Below, piece after piece: positions 698 through 55,760 of a stretch of DNA of 64,000 nucleotides. Every line of letters starts with the position of its first letter. Within the stretch, counting starts at the first letter, position 1. Origin of the DNA: a virus (lineage: Duplodnaviria; Heunggongvirae; Uroviricota; Caudoviricetes); IMG/VR virus record IMGVR_UViG_3300045988_024527, positions 1 to 64,000 of that record. The stretch is one strand, 5' to 3'. The translations under genes were made by a program, and so were the position numbers. Below the pieces are notes generated by a model that did not search any database, had not been told where the DNA came from, and saw nothing but the letters and a program-made list of their open reading frames with translations.

Positions 698-785
698 GGT
701 AGGTAGCGGCTAATGGTAGCCAAACTGTCTTGAAAACAGTTGCCACTGTAGAGATACGGTGAGGGTTCGACTCCTTTACTTACCG
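698..785 (+). tRNA. tRNA-Ser (anticodon UGA), class II long variable arm
   Basis: Acceptor ggtaggt/acttacc, anticodon stem actgt/acagt with loop cttgaaa (TGA 731-733), long variable arm, T-loop ttcgact 766-772. Confidence 0.7.
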
Positions 786-1040
786 CCTAATAAGATTTAA
801 TTCCCGCGCTCGTCTAACAAGCTCGGTTTTTACTCGTGTATTGTCGTACACACTGACAAAGCACCTAGTAGGTGTCACGGAGAAGAGATAATATCAAGCT
901 CTCCAAAGGTTCTAGTCACCGGATTAAACAAGACTATGCAAAGACCTTTCTAGGTCTTTTTAGAGGGCTTCTAAGGTTATTACAGCTTGTTGTGGAACCT
1001 TGTTGCTTAGGTTCTTAGAAGTTCTCTAAAAAGGTTTAAT

Positions 1041-1118
1041 GGGAGATTGACGGTAATTGGTAAACCTATCTCGCTTAGAACGAGATGTTTGAGGGTTCGA
1101 ATCCCTTGTCTCCTACCA
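1041..1118 (+). tRNA. tRNA with anticodon UAG (Leu-type anticodon, short variable arm)
   Basis: Anticodon stem tctcg/cgaga with loop cttagaa (TAG 1076-1078), T-arm gaggg-ttcgaat-ccctt, acceptor gggagat/gtctcct with two G-U pairs, CCA 1116-1118. Confidence 0.5.
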
Positions 1119-1125
1119 AGTTAAT

Positions 1126-1201
1126 GCAGGTGTAGCAAAATGGTTATGCGGCTGACTCTTAATCAGTAAGACGATGGGTTCAATTCCCTCCACCTGTACC
1201 A
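1126..1201 (+). tRNA. tRNA-Lys (anticodon CUU)
   Basis: 76 nt; acceptor gcaggtg/cacctgt, anticodon loop ctcttaa (CTT 1158-1160), T-loop ttcaatt, CCA 1199-1201. Confidence 0.65.
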
Positions 1202-1206
1202 AAAAT

Positions 1207-1282
1207 GGGGTCATAGTTTATATGGTTAAAATTCGAGTTTTGCAAACTTGGGAACTGAGTTCAATTCTCAGTGACTCCACCA
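1207..1282 (+). tRNA. tRNA-Ala (anticodon UGC)
   Basis: 76 nt; acceptor ggggtca/tgactcc with G3-U70, anticodon stem cgagt/acttg with loop tttgcaa (TGC 1240-1242), T-arm ctgag-ttcaatt-ctcag, CCA 1280-1282. Confidence 0.8.
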
Positions 1283-1288
1283 ATTAGT

Positions 1289-1363
1289 GCATCCATAGTT
1301 TAAACGGGAAAATTACAGTCTTCCAAACTGAGGTTGAGGGTTCGATTCCCTCTGGATGCTCCA
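1289..1363 (+). tRNA. tRNA-Gly (anticodon UCC)
   Basis: Acceptor gcatcca/tggatgc, anticodon loop cttccaa (TCC 1322-1324), T-arm gaggg-ttcgatt-ccctc, CCA 1361-1363. Confidence 0.8.
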
Positions 1364-1370
1364 AATTAAT

Positions 1371-1447
1371 GCTGCTTTCGTATAATTGGCTATTACACAT
1401 CCCTTGTAAGGATGGAAATGCAGGTTCGAGTCCTGTGAGCAGCACCA
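1371..1447 (+). tRNA. tRNA-Thr (anticodon UGU)
   Basis: Acceptor gctgctt/gagcagc, anticodon stem catcc/ggatg with loop cttgtaa (TGT 1405-1407), T-loop ttcgagt, CCA 1445-1447. Confidence 0.8.
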
Positions 1448-1542
1448 ATTCAGAGGTCAAGTGAAAGACCGCTGGTGTCAACTGAAGACCGTAACAAATT
1501 CCACGGAGTTGAGTTAGCGGCACAACTTCAGACCTCTTTCAC

Positions 1543-1617
1543 ACTCGCTTAGTTTATATGGTAAAGCCCCATCCTTACAAGTTGGTGAAAAAGGTTCAAG
1601 TCCTTTAGTGAGTACCA
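1543..1617 (+). tRNA. tRNA-Val (anticodon UAC)
   Basis: Acceptor actcgct/agtgagt, anticodon loop cttacaa (TAC 1576-1578), T-arm aaagg-ttcaagt-ccttt, CCA 1615-1617. Confidence 0.7.
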
Positions 1618-1618
1618 T

Positions 1619-1696
1619 GTTCCAGTATCCCAATTGGCAGAGGATGCAAGCTCAAACCTTGTACTAGTGACGGTTCGAATCCGTCTTGGAACACCA
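1619..1696 (+). tRNA. tRNA with anticodon CAA (Leu-type anticodon, short variable arm)
   Basis: Acceptor gttccag/ttggaac, anticodon stem gcaag/cttgt with loop ctcaaac (CAA 1653-1655), T-arm gacgg-ttcgaat-ccgtc, CCA 1694-1696; 78 nt, variable region only about 6 nt. Confidence 0.55.
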
Positions 1697-1712
1697 ATTT
1701 TAGGAGAGCACT

Positions 1713-1820
1713 ATGAGTGATAAGTCCATCGCAAAAAAGTTTAGAGCGTCATATCTAAACAGACGTAAAAACAAAGTTTGTGAAAAACTGTATGGTGTTC
1801 TCGTAGGTAAGCAGGATTAG
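1713..1820 (+). CDS. hypothetical small protein (35 aa), MSDKSIAKKFRASYLNRRKNKVCEKLYGVLVGKQD
   Basis: ATG 1713 preceded by aggagag SD; stop TAG 1818-1820 lies inside the start of tRNA-Arg; below ORF-track size cutoff. Confidence 0.25.
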   Translation: MSDKSIAKKFRASYLNRRKNKVCEKLYGVLVGKQD

Positions 1821-1886
1821 TTCAAATGGATAGAGCAACAGTCTACGAAGCTGTTAATAGGGGTTCGAATCCCTTATCCTGCGCCA
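1811..1886 (+). tRNA. tRNA-Arg (anticodon ACG)
   Basis: 76 nt; perfect acceptor gcaggat/atcctgc, D-stem gttc/gagc, anticodon stem acagt/gctgt with loop ctacgaa (ACG 1845-1847), T-loop ttcgaat, CCA 1884-1886. Confidence 0.85.
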
Positions 1887-1904
1887 GATAAGCAAGAGGA
1901 ATTT

Positions 1905-2147
1905 ATGCAAACATTAATCGTCGTTGCACATGAAAACCCCAATAGTATTGAGTTTGTAAGGGTTCCCACTATAGATACCCACATTTTCTTGAAAGTCGGA
2001 TGGGAATGCGACCCAATAAAAGTAGGGAAATTTCTTGGTCATTACTTTGGTGGAAGACAATTTAAAAGTATCAATTTTGAGACAGTGTTACCAGAAAACT
2101 CAGAAACAGATAATAATACTTACCTCCTTACGAGGATTAGACAATGA
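1905..2147 (+). CDS. hypothetical protein (80 aa) embedded in tRNA array
   Basis: ORF track; abuts the next ORF; no recognisable motif. Confidence 0.35.
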   Translation: MQTLIVVAHENPNSIEFVRVPTIDTHIFLKVGWECDPIKVGKFLGHYFGGRQFKSINFETVLPENSETDNNTYLLTRIRQ

Positions 2148-2701
2148 GATACTTAAAATATGCTTCATGGATTTTCCTAGCTTTACTAGAACCATTTGCA
2201 GCAGCCCTAGCAGTCATCTTAGCACCTTTCGTAGTTCCATTCTACAGTGAGAAGAAAGGACATCTACCTTTTGGATTCAGATGGATGGAGACCTACGACA
2301 ACCCGATTGATGGTGATGAAGGTCACGTTAAAAGATGGGCTAAGATTAGAAAGATTGGTAAGCTGGGTGTCTACATGCAGAGAGTTGGATGGCTCTGGAG
2401 AAACAAAGCTTATAACTTCTCTTACCATGTATTAGGAAGAGATGTAAAAGATGTTACTAAGTGGAAAGGTAATATCAACGTAAGTTCTAACCCTGAAGAT
2501 AATCAGACTGGTTATCTCCTAATGTGGAACAGTAATGCTTGGGGATTATTCGCTTTTATCCCATCAATTAAAGTCTTTGGTAAACAGTTTTACTGGAGAA
2601 TTTATATTGGATGGAAACTAAAAAGTGTTGTCCCAGAAGAAAGAGCATTCTCAAGGGAAAGAGTTATGTTGGCATTCTTTATTCATCCACTGAGAAAGTA
2701 A
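2144..2701 (+). CDS. hypothetical membrane-anchored protein (185 aa)
   Basis: ORF track; hydrophobic N-terminus IFLALLEPFAAALAVILAPFVVPF, Trp-rich body; function not recognised. Confidence 0.5.
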   Translation: MRYLKYASWIFLALLEPFAAALAVILAPFVVPFYSEKKGHLPFGFRWMETYDNPIDGDEGHVKRWAKIRKIGKLGVYMQRVGWLWRNKAYNFSYHVLGRDVKDVTKWKGNINVSSNPEDNQTGYLLMWNSNAWGLFAFIPSIKVFGKQFYWRIYIGWKLKSVVPEERAFSRERVMLAFFIHPLRK

Positions 2702-2709
2702 AGATTTAA

Positions 2710-2785
2710 AGGGGATTAGTTTACAAGGTTAAAACCTCGGTCTTTGAAATCGAAGAAGTTGGTTCAATTCCAACATCCCCCGCCA
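2710..2785 (+). tRNA. tRNA-Gln (anticodon UUG)
   Basis: Anticodon stem tcggt/atcga with loop ctttgaa (TTG 2744-2746), T-arm gttgg-ttcaatt-ccaac, acceptor with A1-C72 mismatch, CCA 2783-2785. Confidence 0.7.
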
Positions 2786-2787
2786 AT

Positions 2788-2866
2788 GCTCCATTACTCC
2801 AATTGGCAGAGAGGCCAGACTTAAAATCTGTGTTATGTATCGGTTCGAATCCGATATGGAGTACCA
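2788..2866 (+). tRNA. tRNA with anticodon UAA (Leu-type anticodon, short variable arm)
   Basis: Acceptor gctccat/atggagt, anticodon loop cttaaaa (TAA 2822-2824), T-arm atcgg-ttcgaat-ccgat, CCA 2864-2866; 79 nt, variable region about 7 nt. Confidence 0.5.
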
Positions 2867-2871
2867 ATTTT

Positions 2872-2947
2872 AGCGGTATAGCATAACTGGCAATGCAACA
2901 GTCTCTGAAGCTGTCCTATTAAGGTTCAAATCCTTATGCCGCTGCCA
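2872..2947 (+). tRNA. tRNA-Gln (anticodon CUG)
   Basis: 76 nt; acceptor agcggta/tgccgct, perfect D-stem gcat/atgc, anticodon stem acagt/gctgt with loop ctctgaa (CTG 2905-2907), T-loop ttcaaat, CCA 2945-2947. Confidence 0.75.
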
Positions 2948-2978
2948 CTTCTAAGGGTTCTTACGAGAGTCCTTAAAT

Positions 2979-3054
2979 GTGGCCTTATCATAAATGGTAA
3001 TGACCCATGCTGTGAACATGGTCTATACGGGTTCAAATCCCGTAGGTCACCCCA
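2979..3054 (+). tRNA. tRNA-His (anticodon GUG)
   Basis: 76 nt; acceptor gtggcct/aggtcac, D-stem tcat/atga, perfect anticodon stem ccatg/catgg with loop ctgtgaa (GTG 3012-3014), T-arm acggg-ttcaaat-cccgt, CCA 3052-3054. Confidence 0.8.
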
Positions 3055-3059
3055 ATTTA

Positions 3060-3136
3060 TAGCCCAAGTAGCTTATATGGTTAAAGCGCGTGTCTGAAAA
3101 ACATGAGAAGAGGGTTCAAATCCCACTGGACTACCA
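3060..3136 (+). tRNA. tRNA-Phe (anticodon GAA), imperfect acceptor stem
   Basis: D-stem gctt/aagc, anticodon stem cgtgt/acatg with loop ctgaaaa (GAA 3096-3098), T-loop ttcaaat 3115-3121; best acceptor pairing tagccca/tggacta has one mismatch and irregular spacing. Confidence 0.45.
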
Positions 3137-3152
3137 ATTTCAAAGGTGCTTA

Positions 3153-3887
3153 ATGAAAGAGATGACAGAACAAGGTAAGGAGATTTTTAATCTCTTAAAA
3201 ACCGGTAAAGGGTTTTCTAACCCACTTATTACTGGTGCAGCAGTTCTCGGTGGAACCGTAGCTGCCTCTACATCACTTGTAAGCTCTATTAGCTCTGTAA
3301 CAGACCCTACAATGAAGGAGAAACTTGTTGCTGCTGGACTTACAACAGTCCTTCTAAACAGTTTTACAACAAGCCTGACAAGCACTACAGCAACCACTAA
3401 GACCTTAACAGATTATGGTCAAAAGTCTATTGATGAGTTTTCATCACGTATGCAGGTAGCAAAGGGATACTCCAATGTTATGGGTGCAGCAGGAGAACAA
3501 GTTGGTTGTACACCATTCAGTGGTATTATGGGTGTTGCTACAGAGTATGGTCAAAAAGCTATTGACATGATTAACAGTACACTAGATAGTGTTAATGGTG
3601 TGTTAAGTGACTTACAAGACGCTATTGACAAGGGTCTTGATACTGTTTCTGATTTAGCTAACCAAGCTGTCAGTAAGATTAATGAAGGTATTTCAAAGAT
3701 TACAGCTTATGCAGATGAAGTTGTGCAGATGATTGAAGAAGAAGCTGCCCTTATTGCAGAGTACCTTAAAACGAATATCAATGGGTTCTTAGCAGGTATC
3801 TTACCAGACTGGTTTGATGATGCCTGTAAAACTGGTGTAATTGACACTATTGCAACACCAGAAATGAAGAGCGCATTACAGAAATAA
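3153..3887 (+). CDS. hypothetical protein (244 aa) embedded in tRNA array
   Basis: ORF-track frame 3090-3887; start moved to ATG 3153 (SD-like aaagg upstream) because 3090-3136 overlaps tRNA-Phe; Ser/Thr-rich N-terminus, no recognised domain. Confidence 0.5.
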   Translation: MKEMTEQGKEIFNLLKTGKGFSNPLITGAAVLGGTVAASTSLVSSISSVTDPTMKEKLVAAGLTTVLLNSFTTSLTSTTATTKTLTDYGQKSIDEFSSRMQVAKGYSNVMGAAGEQVGCTPFSGIMGVATEYGQKAIDMINSTLDSVNGVLSDLQDAIDKGLDTVSDLANQAVSKINEGISKITAYADEVVQMIEEEAALIAEYLKTNINGFLAGILPDWFDDACKTGVIDTIATPEMKSALQK

Positions 3888-3888
3888 T

Positions 3889-3981
3889 GGAAGATTAACC
3901 CTAAAAGGTAAGGGAGCAGTTTGCTAAACTGCCAGTAGCTGAGAAATCGGTGTACCAGTTCAAGTCTGGTATCTTCCTCCA
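3889..3981 (+). tRNA. tRNA-Ser (anticodon GCU), class II long variable arm
   Basis: 93 nt; perfect acceptor ggaagat/atcttcc, perfect anticodon stem gcagt/actgc with loop ttgctaa (GCT 3923-3925), about 21 nt variable arm, T-arm accag-ttcaagt-ctggt, CCA 3979-3981. Confidence 0.85.
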
Positions 3982-3985
3982 ATTT

Positions 3986-4061
3986 GAATCCGTGACAGAA
4001 ATGGCTATGTGCCTGTCTGCAAAACAGGTTTATAATGGTTCAAGTCCCTTCGGATTCTCCA
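3986..4061 (+). tRNA. tRNA-Cys (anticodon GCA)
   Basis: 76 nt; perfect acceptor gaatccg/cggattc, perfect anticodon stem cctgt/acagg with loop ctgcaaa (GCA 4019-4021), T-loop ttcaagt, CCA 4059-4061. Confidence 0.8.
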
Positions 4062-52825: not shown

Positions 52826-54022
52826 ATGAACAAAGTACAGATTATTAAAAAGAATGGCTCACTTGAAGAACCTGATATCAAAAAAGTTTTAGCAGCAGTA
52901 ACTAAGTCAGCTAACAGAGTTGGATATAAAGAACTCCCACCAGATGTTACCCAAGCTCTTGAGTCAGCATTTATGAGGATTCTGGTAAAGTCCACTAAGC
53001 AGAATAATTTACTCATCTCAGTCAATGATATCCACAGCATTGTTGAGGGTGCTTTGGCAGAAGTCAATCACGAGATTTATGAGTCTTACTCAACATATAG
53101 AAATTACCGGAAAGAGGTTGCTCAAAATTGGGATGAGCTTTACCAAAAGACTAGAGACACGCTCTTCTTAGGTGACCGTGAAAACGCTAACTTTGACAGC
53201 AGTTTAATTTCTACAAAAGGTTCAATTATTCGTGGTTATCTGACTAAAGAAATCTTTAAACAGTACCATTTAACACCAGAGGAACTTGAAGCCATTGAAA
53301 AAGGGTTTATCTATATCCATGATTTAAGAGACCTAATTTTTGGTGGTATCAACTGTTGCCTGTTTGACATTGGTAAAGTACTGAAAGGTGGCTTTGAAAT
53401 GTCTGGCATCGAATACTGTGAACCGAAGTCTGTGCTGTCAGCCTTACAGGTTATTGGTGATGTAGTTCTTTCAGCAACTGCACAGCAATTTGGTGGCTTT
53501 ACTTTAGCAGAGATTGATAAGGTACTTGTACCGTATGCTAAGAAGTCTCTACGCTATCATGCTGAGAAAGCAGCATCTTACGGTATTCCTAAAGAACATT
53601 ACCACAATTATGTCATGGAGCAGCTACAGATTGAACTGACTCAAGGTTTCCAGTCACTTGAAATGAAACTAAACACTGTACCTTGTAGTCGTGGGGATTT
53701 TGCATTTACAACTTTGACATTTGGGTTACTTGACTCAGATATGTCTAATGAAGATAATCGACTGCAATACATGATTGCAAGTACTCTCCTAGATGTTCGT
53801 ATGAATGGACAAGGTAAGAGCAAGAAGCCTGTTGTATTCCCTAAACTGGTTTATATTTATGACCAGAAGAGACACGATGAGAATATCTGTCAAGGACACC
53901 TGTACAGTAAAGCCATTGAGTGTTGCTCTAAAGCGATGTATCCAGATTTCTTAAGTGTATCTGGTCATGGTGCTGTAGCAGAGGCTTTTGAGCGTTCTGG
54001 TAAGGTTATTTCACCGATGGGT
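52826..54022 (+). CDS. nrdD: anaerobic ribonucleotide reductase, exon 1
   Basis: 399 codons ending ...ERSGKVISPMG; reading frame hits stop 3 nt into the proposed intron. Confidence 0.8.
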
Positions 54023-54764
54023 TAACAGGCTCTATAGCTCATCTAAAACGTGCCTAAACAGGGAAACTCTACAGATGTAGACAATCCTGTGCTAAATGAT
54101 GTACGATGTAAGAAACTATACAACATAGGAGTCTTACATGCCAAACTATCACGTCACTGAAGATGGAAAAGTCTTTAGGGAAAATGGTGTAGAACTTACG
54201 CAGTGGAAATCCAACACTGGGTATATGAAAGTGAGGTTTTACGGTAAGAAGAATCGTGACATGTATGTCCACAGGTTAGTTGCTGAGAAATATGTACCTA
54301 ACCCGAATAATCTTCCAATTGTAAAACATAAGGACGATAACAAACTAAATAACCACGCATCTAACTTAGAATGGGGTACTCATTCTGAGAATGCTAAAGA
54401 GGGTTATGAGAACGGATGTTACAAGTTCCACAAGCGTTCATATGCCGTGAAAGCCACACACAAAGTGACAAAGGAAGTTATTGTTGCTAAGTCAATACGA
54501 GAGTTATCCAATATACTTGGACACAATCGCAAGACCATCTCTTCAATATTGAAGGGTGTAAAAGAGCATAATAACTTCGAATATGAGTTTGAATACATCT
54601 AAATGCCGAACGACTAACCGTGATGAATGTAGCGGTGTAGGGTCAAGCGACTCGAAATGGTACGCTACTTAGAAATAAGTAGAAGATATAGTCTGGACTT
54701 ACTGGCGACAGTAAGCAGCTTGAATAAAGCGGGGTAAGCTTAGCGAACTTACCTGAACAACAAG
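54023..54764 (+). other. group I self-splicing intron interrupting nrdD
   Basis: Exon 1 ends in U (54022) and intron ends in G (54764); exon tail gatgggu can pair intron gcucauc (54037-54043) with U-G at the splice site; joining gives ...SPMG|CRAFLSPYLNDNGEEFYVGRANIG...; intron carries an HNH ORF. Confidence 0.65.
54138..54602 (+). CDS. intron-encoded HNH homing endonuclease
   Basis: VHRLVAEKYVPNPNNLPIVKHKDDNKLNNHASNLEWGTHSENAK is an HNH_3-type motif; located inside the nrdD intron. Confidence 0.8.
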   Translation: MPNYHVTEDGKVFRENGVELTQWKSNTGYMKVRFYGKKNRDMYVHRLVAEKYVPNPNNLPIVKHKDDNKLNNHASNLEWGTHSENAKEGYENGCYKFHKRSYAVKATHKVTKEVIVAKSIRELSNILGHNRKTISSILKGVKEHNNFEYEFEYI

Positions 54765-55712
54765 TGTAGAGCGTTTTTATCACCATATCTTAACGATAAT
54801 GGGGAAGAGTTCTATGTAGGTCGTGCTAACATTGGTGCTGTGTCTTTGAACTTACCAATGATTTACCAGTATTCTAAAGAGAATGGTTTAGATTTCTGGA
54901 AAGAGCTTGATAAGTACCTAGAGATGATTCGTAGTTTCCACAAGAAACGCTATGAAATGATTGCCAATATGCCAGCAAGTTCTAACCCTCTTGCATTTAC
55001 ACAAGGTGGTCTGTACAAAGGAACTAAGAAGCCTACTGACAAGGTTGGTTGGGATATTGTGAAGTCCTTCACAGCTTCTTTTGGGGTTACTGCGCTTGAT
55101 GAGCTATCTGTTCTTGCTGAAGGTAAACGACTTCATGAAGTTGGAAGCTATAGTTTTGCATATGATGTTCTGGCATACATCAATATGAAAACTGAAGAGT
55201 TTAAGAACGAAGATGGCTTCTTGTATGCGGTATATGGCACTCCAGCAGAATCACTTTGTGGAACTCAGTTAAAACAGTTCAGAGATATGTTTGGCGTTAT
55301 TAAAGGTGTCTCTGACAAGGAATACTTTACAAACAGTTTCCATATGAATGTTGCAGCAGACATCTCACCATTTGAGAAGCAGGACTTAGAAGAGCCATTC
55401 TTCCATATCTGTAGAGGTGGTAGAATCCAGTATGTAAGGGTAGCTAACCCAGAAAACTTACCAGCACTTAAAAGTTGTATTACAAGAGGGATGTTGAAGG
55501 GTTTTTATCAGGGACTTAACTTTGACTTAGCAATCTGTGAACATTGTGGTAACAGACCAAAAGCTGATGTTGAAGAATGTGAGGTTTGTCATTCACATGA
55601 TATCTCTGTGATTAACAGGGTGTGCGGATACTTATCATTCACAAAAATTAAAGGCCAGTCTCGAATGAATGACGCTAAGATGGCAGAAATTAAGGATAGG
55701 ATTTCTATGTAA
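54765..55712 (+). CDS. nrdD: anaerobic ribonucleotide reductase, exon 2
   Basis: In-frame continuation with C-terminal cysteine cluster CEHCGNRPKADVEECEVCHSHD and glycyl-radical motif RVCGYLSF. Confidence 0.8.
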   Translation, partial: CRAFLSPYLNDNGEEFYVGRANIGAVSLNLPMIYQYSKENGLDFWKELDKYLEMIRSFHKKRYEMIANMPASSNPLAFTQGGLYKGTKKPTDKVGWDIVKSFTASFGVTALDELSVLAEGKRLHEVGSYSFAYDVLAYINMKTEEFKNEDGFLYAVYGTPAESLCGTQLKQFRDMFGVIKGVSDKEYFTNSFHMNVAADISPFEKQDLEEPFFHICRGGRIQYVRVANPENLPALKSCITRGMLKGFYQGLNFDLAICEHCGNRPKADVEECEVCHSHDISVINRVCGYLSFTKIKGQSRMNDAKMAEIKDRISM

Positions 55713-55721
55713 AACTTGACA

Positions 55722-55760
55722 AGGTGATGTGGGTCTTGATAGGCTTACATCACCTTTTTA
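55722..55760 (+). terminator. rho-independent terminator
   Basis: 9 bp stem aggtgatgt/acatcacct followed by ttttt. Confidence 0.6.

Follow-up and report, generated by a model that had tools for sequence, protein, structure and literature searches.

In the 64,000-nucleotide stretch of phage DNA analyzed here (hereafter the window), nrdD of a Felix O1-like phage (Felixounavirus) halts at position 54022 and restarts at 54765, which raises the question of what occupies the 742 nt in between and how a complete reductase could be made across them. We consider it very likely that positions 54023–54764 hold a mobile IA2-type group I intron, which belongs to the T4 td family and sits between the codons for Gly399 and the catalytic Cys400. 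All features described below lie on the + strand.

The upstream part of the gene, exon 1 (52826–54022), comprises 399 codons for the ATP-cone and the N-terminal half of NrdD, with Pfam matches to the ATP-cone and to positions 1–250 of the NRDD profile. Its end reads ATG GGT and is directly followed by TAA in the nrdD frame (54023–54025, intron bases 1–3). As this stop precludes in-frame translation of the insertion, an intein was ruled out. Exon 2 (54765–55712; 315 codons plus stop) starts with the codon for Cys400, which aligned to Cys290 of T4 NrdD, and matches positions 264–560 of the NRDD profile as well as Gly_radical; it holds the glycyl-radical motif RVCG687Y, which aligned to T4 G580. 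Joining the exons from 54022 to 54765 yields a 714-aa NrdD whose alignment to T4 NrdD is gapless at the junction (T4 G289/C290; slashes mark junctions throughout). These results bear out a preliminary description, made from the sequence alone, which had named nrdD as the host gene and had proposed a frame that stops after SPMG, a gap of 742 nt and, upon joining, a continuous peptide ending in RVCGY. The activase gene nrdG lies intact downstream of nrdD.

The proposed gap is also located by intron-less Felixounavirus alleles, which read ...CCGATGGGT/TGCCGAGCG... and place the insertion at exactly 54023–54764; the intron-less nrdD allele of radambza, for example, runs ...CCGATGGGTTGCCGAGCGTTCTTATCACC... 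A 1-nt ambiguity of the boundary (T/T) was resolved by the group I rule that a U precedes the 5' splice site and a G is the last intron base. At the DNA level the junction is GGT/TGC CGA GCG TTC in intron-less alleles and GGT/intron/TGT AGA GCG TTT in intron-bearing ones, and both allele types encode identical junction residues, G/CRAF (…SPMG/CRAFLS…). Across this site the intron-less alleles encode the same protein as the joined exons, with no extra residues. The boundaries of the insertion are exact, and the protein is unchanged.

The intron starts with UAACAGG, ends with ...ACAAG (terminal G at 54764) and is devoid of P2. Close to its start lies an internal guide sequence (54030–54043), in which 14 of 14 nucleotides pair with the exon ends. 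The P1 half of this guide had been recognized in the preliminary description and holds at 7/7 pairs: the last 7 nt of exon 1 (gaugggu, 54016–54022) pair with gcucauc (54037–54043), with the wobble U54022·G54037 at the splice site. The adjoining P10 half had been missed; here, cucuaua (54030–54036) pairs 7/7 with uguagag (54765–54771), the first seven bases of exon 2. Among 200,000 shuffles of the first 100 intron bases, only 9 produced a comparable uninterrupted 14-nt guide.

Around the guide, the helices of a group I core were assigned from Rfam alignments, a hand-made helix table and per-pair counts. The 5' half of the core (54049–54092) contains the 5' strand of P3 (54049–54054), P4 (54058–54063 with 54085–54090), P5 (54068–54072 with 54077–54081) and the 5' strand of P6 (54091–54092). 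The 5' strand of P6a, GAUGUA (54098–54103), pairs 6/6 with UACAUC (54594–54599), which also forms the final two sense codons of an endonuclease ORF. This 3' strand opens a segment (54594–54616) that continues with the 3' strand of P6 (GC, 54605–54606), J6/7 and the 5' strand of P7 (GACUA, 54612–54616). P7.1 (54617–54620 with 54633–54636), in which four of the four pairs change on both sides, is joined by a GUA linker (54637–54639) to P7.2 (54640–54644 with 54649–54653). There follow the 3' strand of P3 (54659–54664; 5 of the 6 P3 pairs change on both sides), P8 with a GAAA loop (54665–54671 with 54676–54682), J8/7 (AAGAUA, 54683–54688) and the 3' strand of P7 (UAGUC, 54689–54693). P9 with a GCGA loop (54698–54704 with 54709–54715), P9.1 (54718–54721 with 54727–54730) and P9.2 (54733–54738 with 54748–54753), each with 3–4 compensatory pairs, precede the 3' tail UGAACAACAAG, which runs up to the terminal G at 54764. 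Subgroup IA2 is defined by P7.1 and P7.2, linked by G-U-A, which follow the P7 5' strand (PMC3428280), and the intron carries P7.1/GUA/P7.2 between P7 and P3'. This subgroup, the likeness to td and a site other than that of the T4 nrdD intron extend the earlier account.

With the Rfam group I model RF00028 (gathering cut-off 50 bits), the window itself gave split, sub-threshold matches of 33.1 and 15.6 bits that flank the ORF; the low score reflects the ORF, which breaks up the match to the model. As a positive control, the T4 td intron, which is established by experiment and likewise contains an ORF, reached only 40.3 bits in a comparable search. Natural copies that lack the ORF scored above the cut-off (54.2 bits for ECOH1, 55.4 for REP8 and 60.4 for RPN213). 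At the gathering threshold, an Rfam scan of the whole window reported tRNAs only and missed the intron, which the ORF splits, and a permissive scan of the whole window did not find a second group I signal.

Comparative evidence points in the same direction. In the hand-made helix table, all 14 helices are kept in nine related introns. Between the window and Vibrio phage F97, 48 of the 77 pairs are identical, 6 are changed on one side, 22 are compensated on both sides and 1 is broken. Some of this evidence uses hand-defined helices. Pairs were also counted in an independent MAFFT alignment (A1), although the structure counted there is itself derived from the window sequence. Here, 94.5% of the cells were paired, versus 34–44% when the partners were slid by 1–3 columns, and 32 pairs were changed on both sides, versus 5–9 in the slid controls; these values were reached in 0 of 500 shuffles. 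MAFFT aligns P6a and portions of P5, P8 and P10 incorrectly, and P6a was excluded from the A1 count and judged in the hand-made table only; its strands differ yet are fully complementary in F97 (9 bp), A138 and 536P1 (13 bp) and T4 td (9 bp). Both parts of the guide change in concert with the exons in F97, A138, 536P1 and phiA047, as exemplified by F97, where P1 is UAUGGGU/GCUCAUG and P10 is AUUGGCA/UGCCGAU. Between the helices, the segment AAAUGCC.AACGACUA (P6 3'-J6/7-P7 region) is invariant in A1, and GA(A/G)GAUAUAGUCUG (P8-J8/7-P7 region) is invariant in nine introns including T4 td. The insert has a ribozyme fold with covariation, and the initial assignment to group I stands on this fold, the guide and the Rfam scores of the ORF-less copies.

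Could nrdD instead be a gene in pieces, split by a free-standing HNH gene into halves that are translated separately and assemble without RNA splicing? Most GenBank records show nrdD as two separate CDSs alongside an HNH gene, published descriptions go no further than a 'split gene' with a homing endonuclease inside it (PMC4837284), and there is a precedent in nrdA of Aeromonas phage Aeh1, which is split by mobE (summarised in PMC3653736). Against such an arrangement, which we regard as very improbable, stands the complete group I ribozyme with its covariation and with a guide that pairs with both exon ends. Moreover, the exon-2 frame offers no ATG, GTG or TTG from the stop at 54741 until GTG 54840, 25 codons beyond the catalytic Cys codon, so that a separate C-terminal piece would miss 25 residues including Cys400, and the roughly 290–316 nt of conserved RNA in ORF-less copies would be without a role. 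It is scarcely credible that the insert is a decayed relic within an nrdD pseudogene, with an anaerobic reductase that is dispensable in this Felix O1-like phage. Even though nrdD is non-essential for T4 in aerobic laboratory growth, both exons are intact and full-length with the GCRAF junction of the intron-less alleles, all core helices and invariant junction segments are intact, the arrangement is kept in 94 records, and nrdG is intact as well. The element, an ordinary mobile group I intron in our reading, is in fact already annotated publicly: in the GenBank records of Bas63 (MZ501086) and Meda (MH586731), nrdD is entered as a two-piece join whose length matches. Our literature search found no paper that calls the nrdD insert of Felixounavirus a group I intron or tests its splicing, nor experimental splicing or nuclease activity for any Felixounavirus.

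By homology, we infer that the group I intron splices catalytically. In the pre-mRNA, the guide at 54030–54043 would pair with the last seven nucleotides of exon 1 (P1, with the U·G pair) and the first seven of exon 2 (P10), and the core, made up of the P3-P8 and P4-P6 domains, the G-binding helix P7, P7.1/P7.2 and P9-P9.2, would fold around it. An exogenous guanosine would then attack after U54022, and the freed 3'-OH of exon 1 would attack after G54764. The predicted product is an mRNA for the intact 714-aa NrdD with the junction ...CCGAUGGGU/UGUAGAGCG... (...GAUGGGU/UGUAGAG...). Because exon 2 has no start of its own, its first 25 codons, including that for the catalytic Cys, would be untranslatable in unspliced RNA.

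Since the strands of P6a (54098–54103 and 54594–54599) pair with each other, the ORF at 54138–54602 is located in the P6a loop. As already suspected, it encodes an HNH homing endonuclease, of the I-HmuI type and 154 aa long: it matches Pfam HNH_3 (PF13392) with 41.2 bits (cut-off 24.8) and aligns over its whole length with I-HmuI (PDB 1U3E; E = 4e-9, residues 3–151 versus 12–168). In the N-terminal half lies the catalytic HNH(N) motif, made up of H64, N76 and N85, which correspond to His75, Asn87 and Asn96 of I-HmuI and are invariant among homologues, while the C-terminal half aligns with the remaining I-HmuI chain. The position of I-HmuI Asp74 is occupied by Lys63; homologues from the same site have Lys or Cys there. 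His75 and Asn96 are catalytic residues of I-HmuI, as is Asp74, its metal ligand; given Lys63 at the position of Asp74, the catalytic competence of the endonuclease is not to be assumed. Purifying selection on the protein is strong (dN/dS 0.04–0.06 at dS ~0.5–0.67). A hairpin that could serve in translational control may form at 54106–54139, where AUGUAAGA (54106–54113) pairs with UCUUACAU (54132–54139), such that the loop would hold the Shine-Dalgarno sequence AGGAG (54127–54131) and the stem the AU of the start codon; this hairpin over the endonuclease start is part of the minimum-free-energy fold, with a z-score of -1.5 that is not significant. A scan of the region for sigma-70 promoters gave 13 sites versus 12.4 ± 3.9 in shuffles and, thus, no excess.

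The intron and its ORF are both polymorphic. Among approximately 241 related phage records with the exon junction, ~94 contain the intron and 61 the endonuclease gene, which is consequently gone in about a third of the intron-bearing records. At least two independent deletions removed it, namely 54144–54569 (ECOH1/REP8) and ~54104–54553 (RPN213), and the ORF-less copies keep ~290–316 nt of conserved non-coding RNA. This pattern of presence, absence and endonuclease loss is the one expected of a homing element. Within the sample, the variants at +12 and +54 of exon 2 go with the presence of the intron without exception. A clean co-conversion boundary at ~+23 was considered and dropped, as the wider sample turned out to be a mosaic: from +24 to +48 the window resembles the intron-less radambza, and at +54 it again carries the intron-linked variant. 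Such a mosaic fits with co-conversion and equally with ordinary recombination.

As for mobility, the predicted endonuclease would most likely nick the intron-less nrdD of co-infecting relatives near the insertion site, as might be expected of its I-HmuI type, and recombinational repair would transfer a copy of the intron, along with part of the adjoining exon sequence, to the recipient. An improbable alternative is that the intron splices while its endonuclease, being inactive or having a maturase-like or anti-competitor role, no longer drives homing, with spread occurring by descent or ordinary recombination. Such a scenario would accommodate Lys63 in place of the metal ligand Asp74, the third of intron-bearing records that are without the ORF and whose intron shows no visible damage, and the case of PhiPA3, whose intron-encoded HNH enzyme is reported to serve inter-phage competition (PMC11620839). 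However, dN/dS values of 0.04–0.06 at a dS of ~0.5 signify strong selection on the protein, and the catalytic His and both Asn are invariant. Moreover, four phage lineages harbor the same endonuclease family together with the same intron at the same site, as site-specific homing predicts, and exon-2 markers are linked to the presence of the intron. More speculatively, and on balance unlikely, the endonuclease might be kept mainly as a weapon of competition or marker exclusion among co-infecting Felix O1-like phages, nicking intron-less nrdD, or translation and ribozyme folding might exclude each other. If it were a weapon, the substitutions that all intron-bearing alleles show shortly after the insertion site (TGT AGA ... 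TTT versus TGC/CGA ... TTC in alleles lacking the intron) would guard the carrier's DNA and strengthen P10. Mutual exclusion, which could time splicing against endonuclease expression, is suggested by the last codons of the ORF, which double as the P6a 3' strand, and by the ORFs of the same-site homologues, which read through P6 and J6/7 to a stop overlapping the end of P7.

The importance of the element lies mainly in annotation. Most of the 94 public Felixounavirus records list nrdD in at least two fragments or as hypothetical proteins, as do the Vequintavirinae, Phapecoctavirus and Vibrio phage records with same-site introns, and two-exon joins would restore the full-length anaerobic reductase in these records. 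Intron-less, intron-plus-endonuclease and intron-only alleles occur in near-identical, easily grown phages, which makes them a convenient system in which to quantify homing, co-conversion and loss of the endonuclease. Its position directly ahead of the catalytic Cys codon makes the insertion a further case of mobile introns aiming at the most conserved part of an enzyme; the general understanding of group I introns is unchanged by it.

Among known systems, the T4 td intron (IA2, I-TevI) belongs to the same ribozyme family, and its 3' half is ~70% identical to that of the nrdD intron. The core junction segments are nearly identical; those shared are UAAAC.GGG, GACAAUCC, GCUAAA, AAAUGCC.AACGACUA, GUAGGGUCAAG.GACUCGAAA, GA.GAUAUAGUCUG and CUGAACA. 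Both introns have P7.1/P7.2 between P7 and P3' and an endonuclease ORF looped out of P6a. They differ in host gene (thymidylate synthase for td), in endonuclease (GIY-YIG I-TevI versus HNH), in P2, which is present in td and absent here, and in the sequence and loop of P7.1. The T4 nrdD (sunY) intron with I-TevII shares the host gene and is likewise a phage intron of group I that contains an endonuclease ORF. Identity with this intron was nevertheless rejected, since the T4 insertion follows nt 538 of the coding sequence (approximately codon 179/180), whereas the present one corresponds to T4 G289/C290, ~110 codons further downstream; besides, the T4 nrdD intron endonuclease is GIY-YIG according to its record note, and the ORF here is HNH. 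In a DNA search with the intron core, the T4 nrdD region was absent among the matches listed, and the T4 match listed was the td intron.

Introns of the I-HmuI/I-BasI type are likewise IA2 and encode an endonuclease of the same family with an N-terminal HNH; indeed, tblastn with the ORF finds I-BasI-type genes. Enzymes of the I-HmuI family are nickases that cut beside the insertion site (PMC3428280). These introns occupy other host genes in phages of Gram-positive bacteria, and I-HmuI itself is ~31% identical to the ORF over the aligned N-terminal part, with Lys here at the equivalent of its Asp74. The nrdA/mobE locus of Aeh1 resembles the present one in that a phage ribonucleotide reductase gene is broken by an HNH gene into two CDSs (PMC3653736). 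It differs in that an intron is absent and the halves are translated separately, whereas here the ribozyme is complete and the downstream half lacks a start codon of its own.

Three further introns, in Vibrio phage F97, in 'Campylobacter phage A138' (whose genome is of the Vequintavirinae) and in Phapecoctavirus 536P1, interrupt nrdD at the same site, between the same codons for Gly and the catalytic Cys; they are annotated as introns in none of the three records. They share a homologous IA2 core without P2 and carry in P6a a homologous HNH ORF with 41–50% amino acid identity. In all three, the ORF runs through P6 3' and J6/7 to a UAA that overlaps the end of the P7 5' strand (GACUAA), unlike the ORF in the window, which stops just before P6 3'. 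The sequences of P6a, P8 and P9 also differ between these introns and the one in the window, and the differences are compensated pair by pair.

Around nrdD, sequence identity to many Felix O1-like phages (genus Felixounavirus) exceeds 95%, the best match being Escherichia phage allfine (98.5%). In this region, nrdA is followed by a small ORF, nrdB, a gene for glutaredoxin, an ORF for a small membrane protein, the split nrdD, further small ORFs and nrdG. Exon 1 of nrdD (52826-54022) ends with ...TCA CCG ATG GGT and is immediately followed by TAA. Joining 54022 to 54765 yields a 714-aa NrdD whose alignment with T4 NrdD runs ungapped through the junction, consistent with the preliminary description, according to which the frame is interrupted at 54023-54764 and resumes thereafter. 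In this alignment, G399/C400 correspond to T4 G289/C290 and RVCG687Y is aligned to T4 G580; in the T4 structure, Cys290 is the active-site cysteine and Gly580 the radical site. The Pfam NRDD profile is split across the two exons (profile positions 1-250 on exon 1 and 264-560 on exon 2, 54765-55712), and exon 2 also carries the Gly_radical match. Intron-less Felixounavirus alleles, among them radambza and those of 17 IMG/VR contigs, have ...CCGATGGGT|TGCCGAGCG... at this point, so that the insertion comprises exactly 54023-54764; the one-base T/T ambiguity at its boundary is resolved by the group I requirement for a U before the 5' splice site and a G at the intron end (54764). Extra residues at the junction, which the preliminary description had named as counter-evidence, occur in none of these alleles.

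Further features were observed in the vicinity and elsewhere in the window. A strong terminator-like hairpin of 16 pairs with a T-run after it (55721-55756) is located 9 nt past the nrdD stop codon. Directly downstream of nrdD, radambza carries a free-standing putative homing endonuclease gene (2756-3313 of its locus, L001); in the window, nothing but small ORFs occupies this position. Sixteen tRNA genes above the Rfam tRNA threshold are clustered at 698-4058 (+), of which that at 698-785 is low-scoring (33.2 bits) and in addition has a weak tRNA-Sec-like match.

The insert can be folded into a complete group I ribozyme. In the internal guide, the P10 segment lies immediately 5' of the P1 segment with no gap between them, and all 14 positions pair with the exon ends (P1, 54016-54022 with 54037-54043, as proposed from the exon 1 tail in the preliminary description; P10, 54030-54036 with 54765-54771). 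When the first 100 intron bases were shuffled 200,000 times, such a guide arose on only 9 occasions. P2 is absent and J1/3 reads UAAAA. The core comprises P3 (54049-54054 with 54659-54664), P4 (54058-54063 with 54085-54090), P5 (54068-54072 with 54077-54081), P6 (54091-54092 with 54605-54606), P6a (54098-54103 with 54594-54599), P7 (54612-54616 with 54689-54693), P8 (54665-54671 with 54676-54682) and J8/7 (AAGAUA, 54683-54688), followed by P9 (54698-54704 with 54709-54715), P9.1 (54718-54721 with 54727-54730) and P9.2 (54733-54738 with 54748-54753). P7.1 (54617-54620 with 54633-54636) and P7.2 (54640-54644 with 54649-54653) are joined via GUA (54637-54639), the feature by which subgroup IA2 is assigned in the literature (PMC3428280).

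Searching the window with Rfam model RF00028 (cut-off 50 bits) returned two partial matches flanking the ORF, at 33.1 and 15.6 bits. The same intron occurs naturally in ORF-less form in many related phages, which provides a control, and such copies reached 54.2 (ECOH1), 55.4 (REP8) and 60.4 bits (RPN213). A score below threshold is to be expected for ORF-bearing introns, since the T4 td intron, a textbook example of self-splicing and likewise ORF-bearing, reached no more than 40.3 bits when searched in this way.

We compared the intron, after excision of the ORFs, with those of three other Felixounavirus variants, Vibrio phage F97, 'Campylobacter phage A138', Phapecoctavirus 536P1, T4 td and Aeromonas phage phiA047. 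All helices were kept in all of these introns even though the sequences differ. Relative to F97, 48 pairs were identical, 6 differed on one side, 22 differed on both sides yet could still pair, and 1 was broken. In an independent MAFFT alignment, 94.5% of cells were paired under the window-derived structure, as opposed to 34-44% when the 3' partners were slid by 1-3 columns, and 32 pairs had changed on both sides (5-9 in the slid controls); none of 500 shuffles reached the observed values. P7 and the junction segments were invariant and matched T4 td. P1 and P10 vary in step with the exon sequences (P10 of F97 is AUUGGCA/UGCCGAU), and the guide is thereby linked to precisely these splice sites.

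The ORF at 54138-54602, preceded by AGGAG (54127-54131), encodes 154 aa and, as previously described, is predicted to be an HNH endonuclease: it matches Pfam HNH_3 and aligns over nearly its full length with I-HmuI (PDB 1U3E; E = 4e-9). H64, N76 and N85 correspond to I-HmuI H75, N87 and N96 and are invariant among homologues. The I-HmuI metal ligand D74 is replaced by Lys63, which would be a caveat on the predicted nuclease activity. Compared with Bas63-type copies of the gene, dS was 0.5-0.67 and dN 0.02-0.03, and the resulting dN/dS of 0.04-0.06 shows strong purifying selection on the protein. The ORF is placed in the P6a loop, its last two sense codons (UAC AUC) forming the P6a 3' strand. 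A start-codon hairpin appeared in the minimum-free-energy fold, yet it was statistically indistinguishable from shuffles.

Could nrdD instead be a gene in pieces, as in Aeh1 nrdA, with each part translated separately? The ribozyme is complete, and there is no in-frame start codon between the stop at 54741 and GTG 54840, so that translation of the catalytic cysteine would require splicing; this reading is excluded for practical purposes. An intein was also considered and is ruled out by an in-frame stop (TAA) formed by the first three intron bases. Intact exons and helices, together with conservation across 94 records, contradict a decayed intron or an nrdD pseudogene. As judged from sequence, 54023-54764 is a group I intron with an HNH endonuclease ORF, and the first reading was correct.

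Within the phage collection, about 241 records (not distinct phages) contained the exon junction, 94 of them with the intron and 61 with both intron and endonuclease gene, so that roughly 60% of the sites are empty, 25% hold the full element and 14% the intron alone. The endonuclease gene was lost at least two times within the same intron. ECOH1 and REP8 (introns at L002 1801-2115 and L003 1801-2116) share an in-frame 426-nt deletion (54144-54569) that leaves a 12-codon remnant ORF, and RPN213 (L052 1001-1292) has a different deletion of about 450 nt (approximately 54104-54553) that removed the ribosome-binding site and start codon. Both deletion types retain the P6a strands.

Exon 2 starts with TGT AGA GCR TTT in 14 of 14 sampled intron-bearing alleles; the same Phe codon is TTC in all 15 closely related intron-less alleles, most of which also have TGC. 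Site +54 was likewise linked to intron presence, and no such site was found in the 5' exon of the same alleles. Nick sites in exon 2 have been reported for I-HmuI-type enzymes (PMC3428280), and the linkage fits, without proving, both co-conversion of exon 2 during homing and such nick sites. At +24 to +48 (54788-54812), the variants in the window are those of radambza, which lacks the intron (...SPYLNDNGEE...), where the other alleles with the intron have ...SPYHNE(D/Y)GEE.... As this patch is bracketed by the intron-linked variants +12 and +54, the exon-2 flank is a recombination mosaic.

The element is already in public data and correctly annotated in places. GenBank entries Bas63 (MZ501086) and Meda (MH586731) join nrdD from two pieces over 2,887 nt, which equals a coding sequence of 2,145 nt and the insert of 742 nt, and the BASEL paper used comparative genomics to set intron boundaries (PMC8594841). 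The UAB_Phi87 paper (PMC4837284) cites an earlier study for a 'split gene (nrdD)' with a homing endonuclease as the interruption. No introns were reported in the genome paper on Felix O1 (PMC3185647), consistent with presence/absence polymorphism among relatives. Our literature search found no paper on the class, structure or splicing of this nrdD intron. In Escherichia phage SP22 (LC519489), the nrdD product is named 'baseplate subunit', an apparent annotation error.

Several other phage records deserve comment. The annotation of Vibrio phage F97 nrdD (L051) shows four fragments and two HNH genes: a first insertion (225-1383; HNH ORF 327-1256), a second (1888-2706) that is the same-site homologue of the window intron and the only one with an Rfam group I match, and a further break at 3303/3304. 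Vibrio phage S4-7 (L056) has two ORF-less group I introns above the Rfam cut-off (1865-2086 and 2458-2710; 69.0 and 58.5 bits) inside a DNA polymerase gene annotated as three separate 'DNA polymerase' CDSs. In Aeromonas phage phiA047 (L057), an ORF-less td-like intron (1922-2183; 67.9 bits) lies between two hypothetical-protein CDSs, which are probably exons of one gene. A138 (L054, MG065684), labelled a Campylobacter phage, is classed in Vequintavirinae, and the similarly labelled A132 and A126 match Felixounavirus nrdD at 95.5%. All three sequences are typical of E. coli phages and, because the records are marked UNVERIFIED, mislabelling or mixed assembly is likely.

The nrdD intron is an ordinary member of a well-understood class. 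In F97, A138 and 536P1, a homologous IA2 intron is inserted at the same Gly/Cys codon boundary (...YMG|CRS..., ...SMG|CRS...), with HNH ORFs 41-50% identical to that of the window. T4 td shares approximately 70% DNA identity with the 3' half of the intron and likewise holds its ORF, I-TevI, in the P6a loop. The T4 nrdD intron, in contrast, occupies a different site about 110 codons upstream and encodes a GIY-YIG rather than an HNH enzyme.
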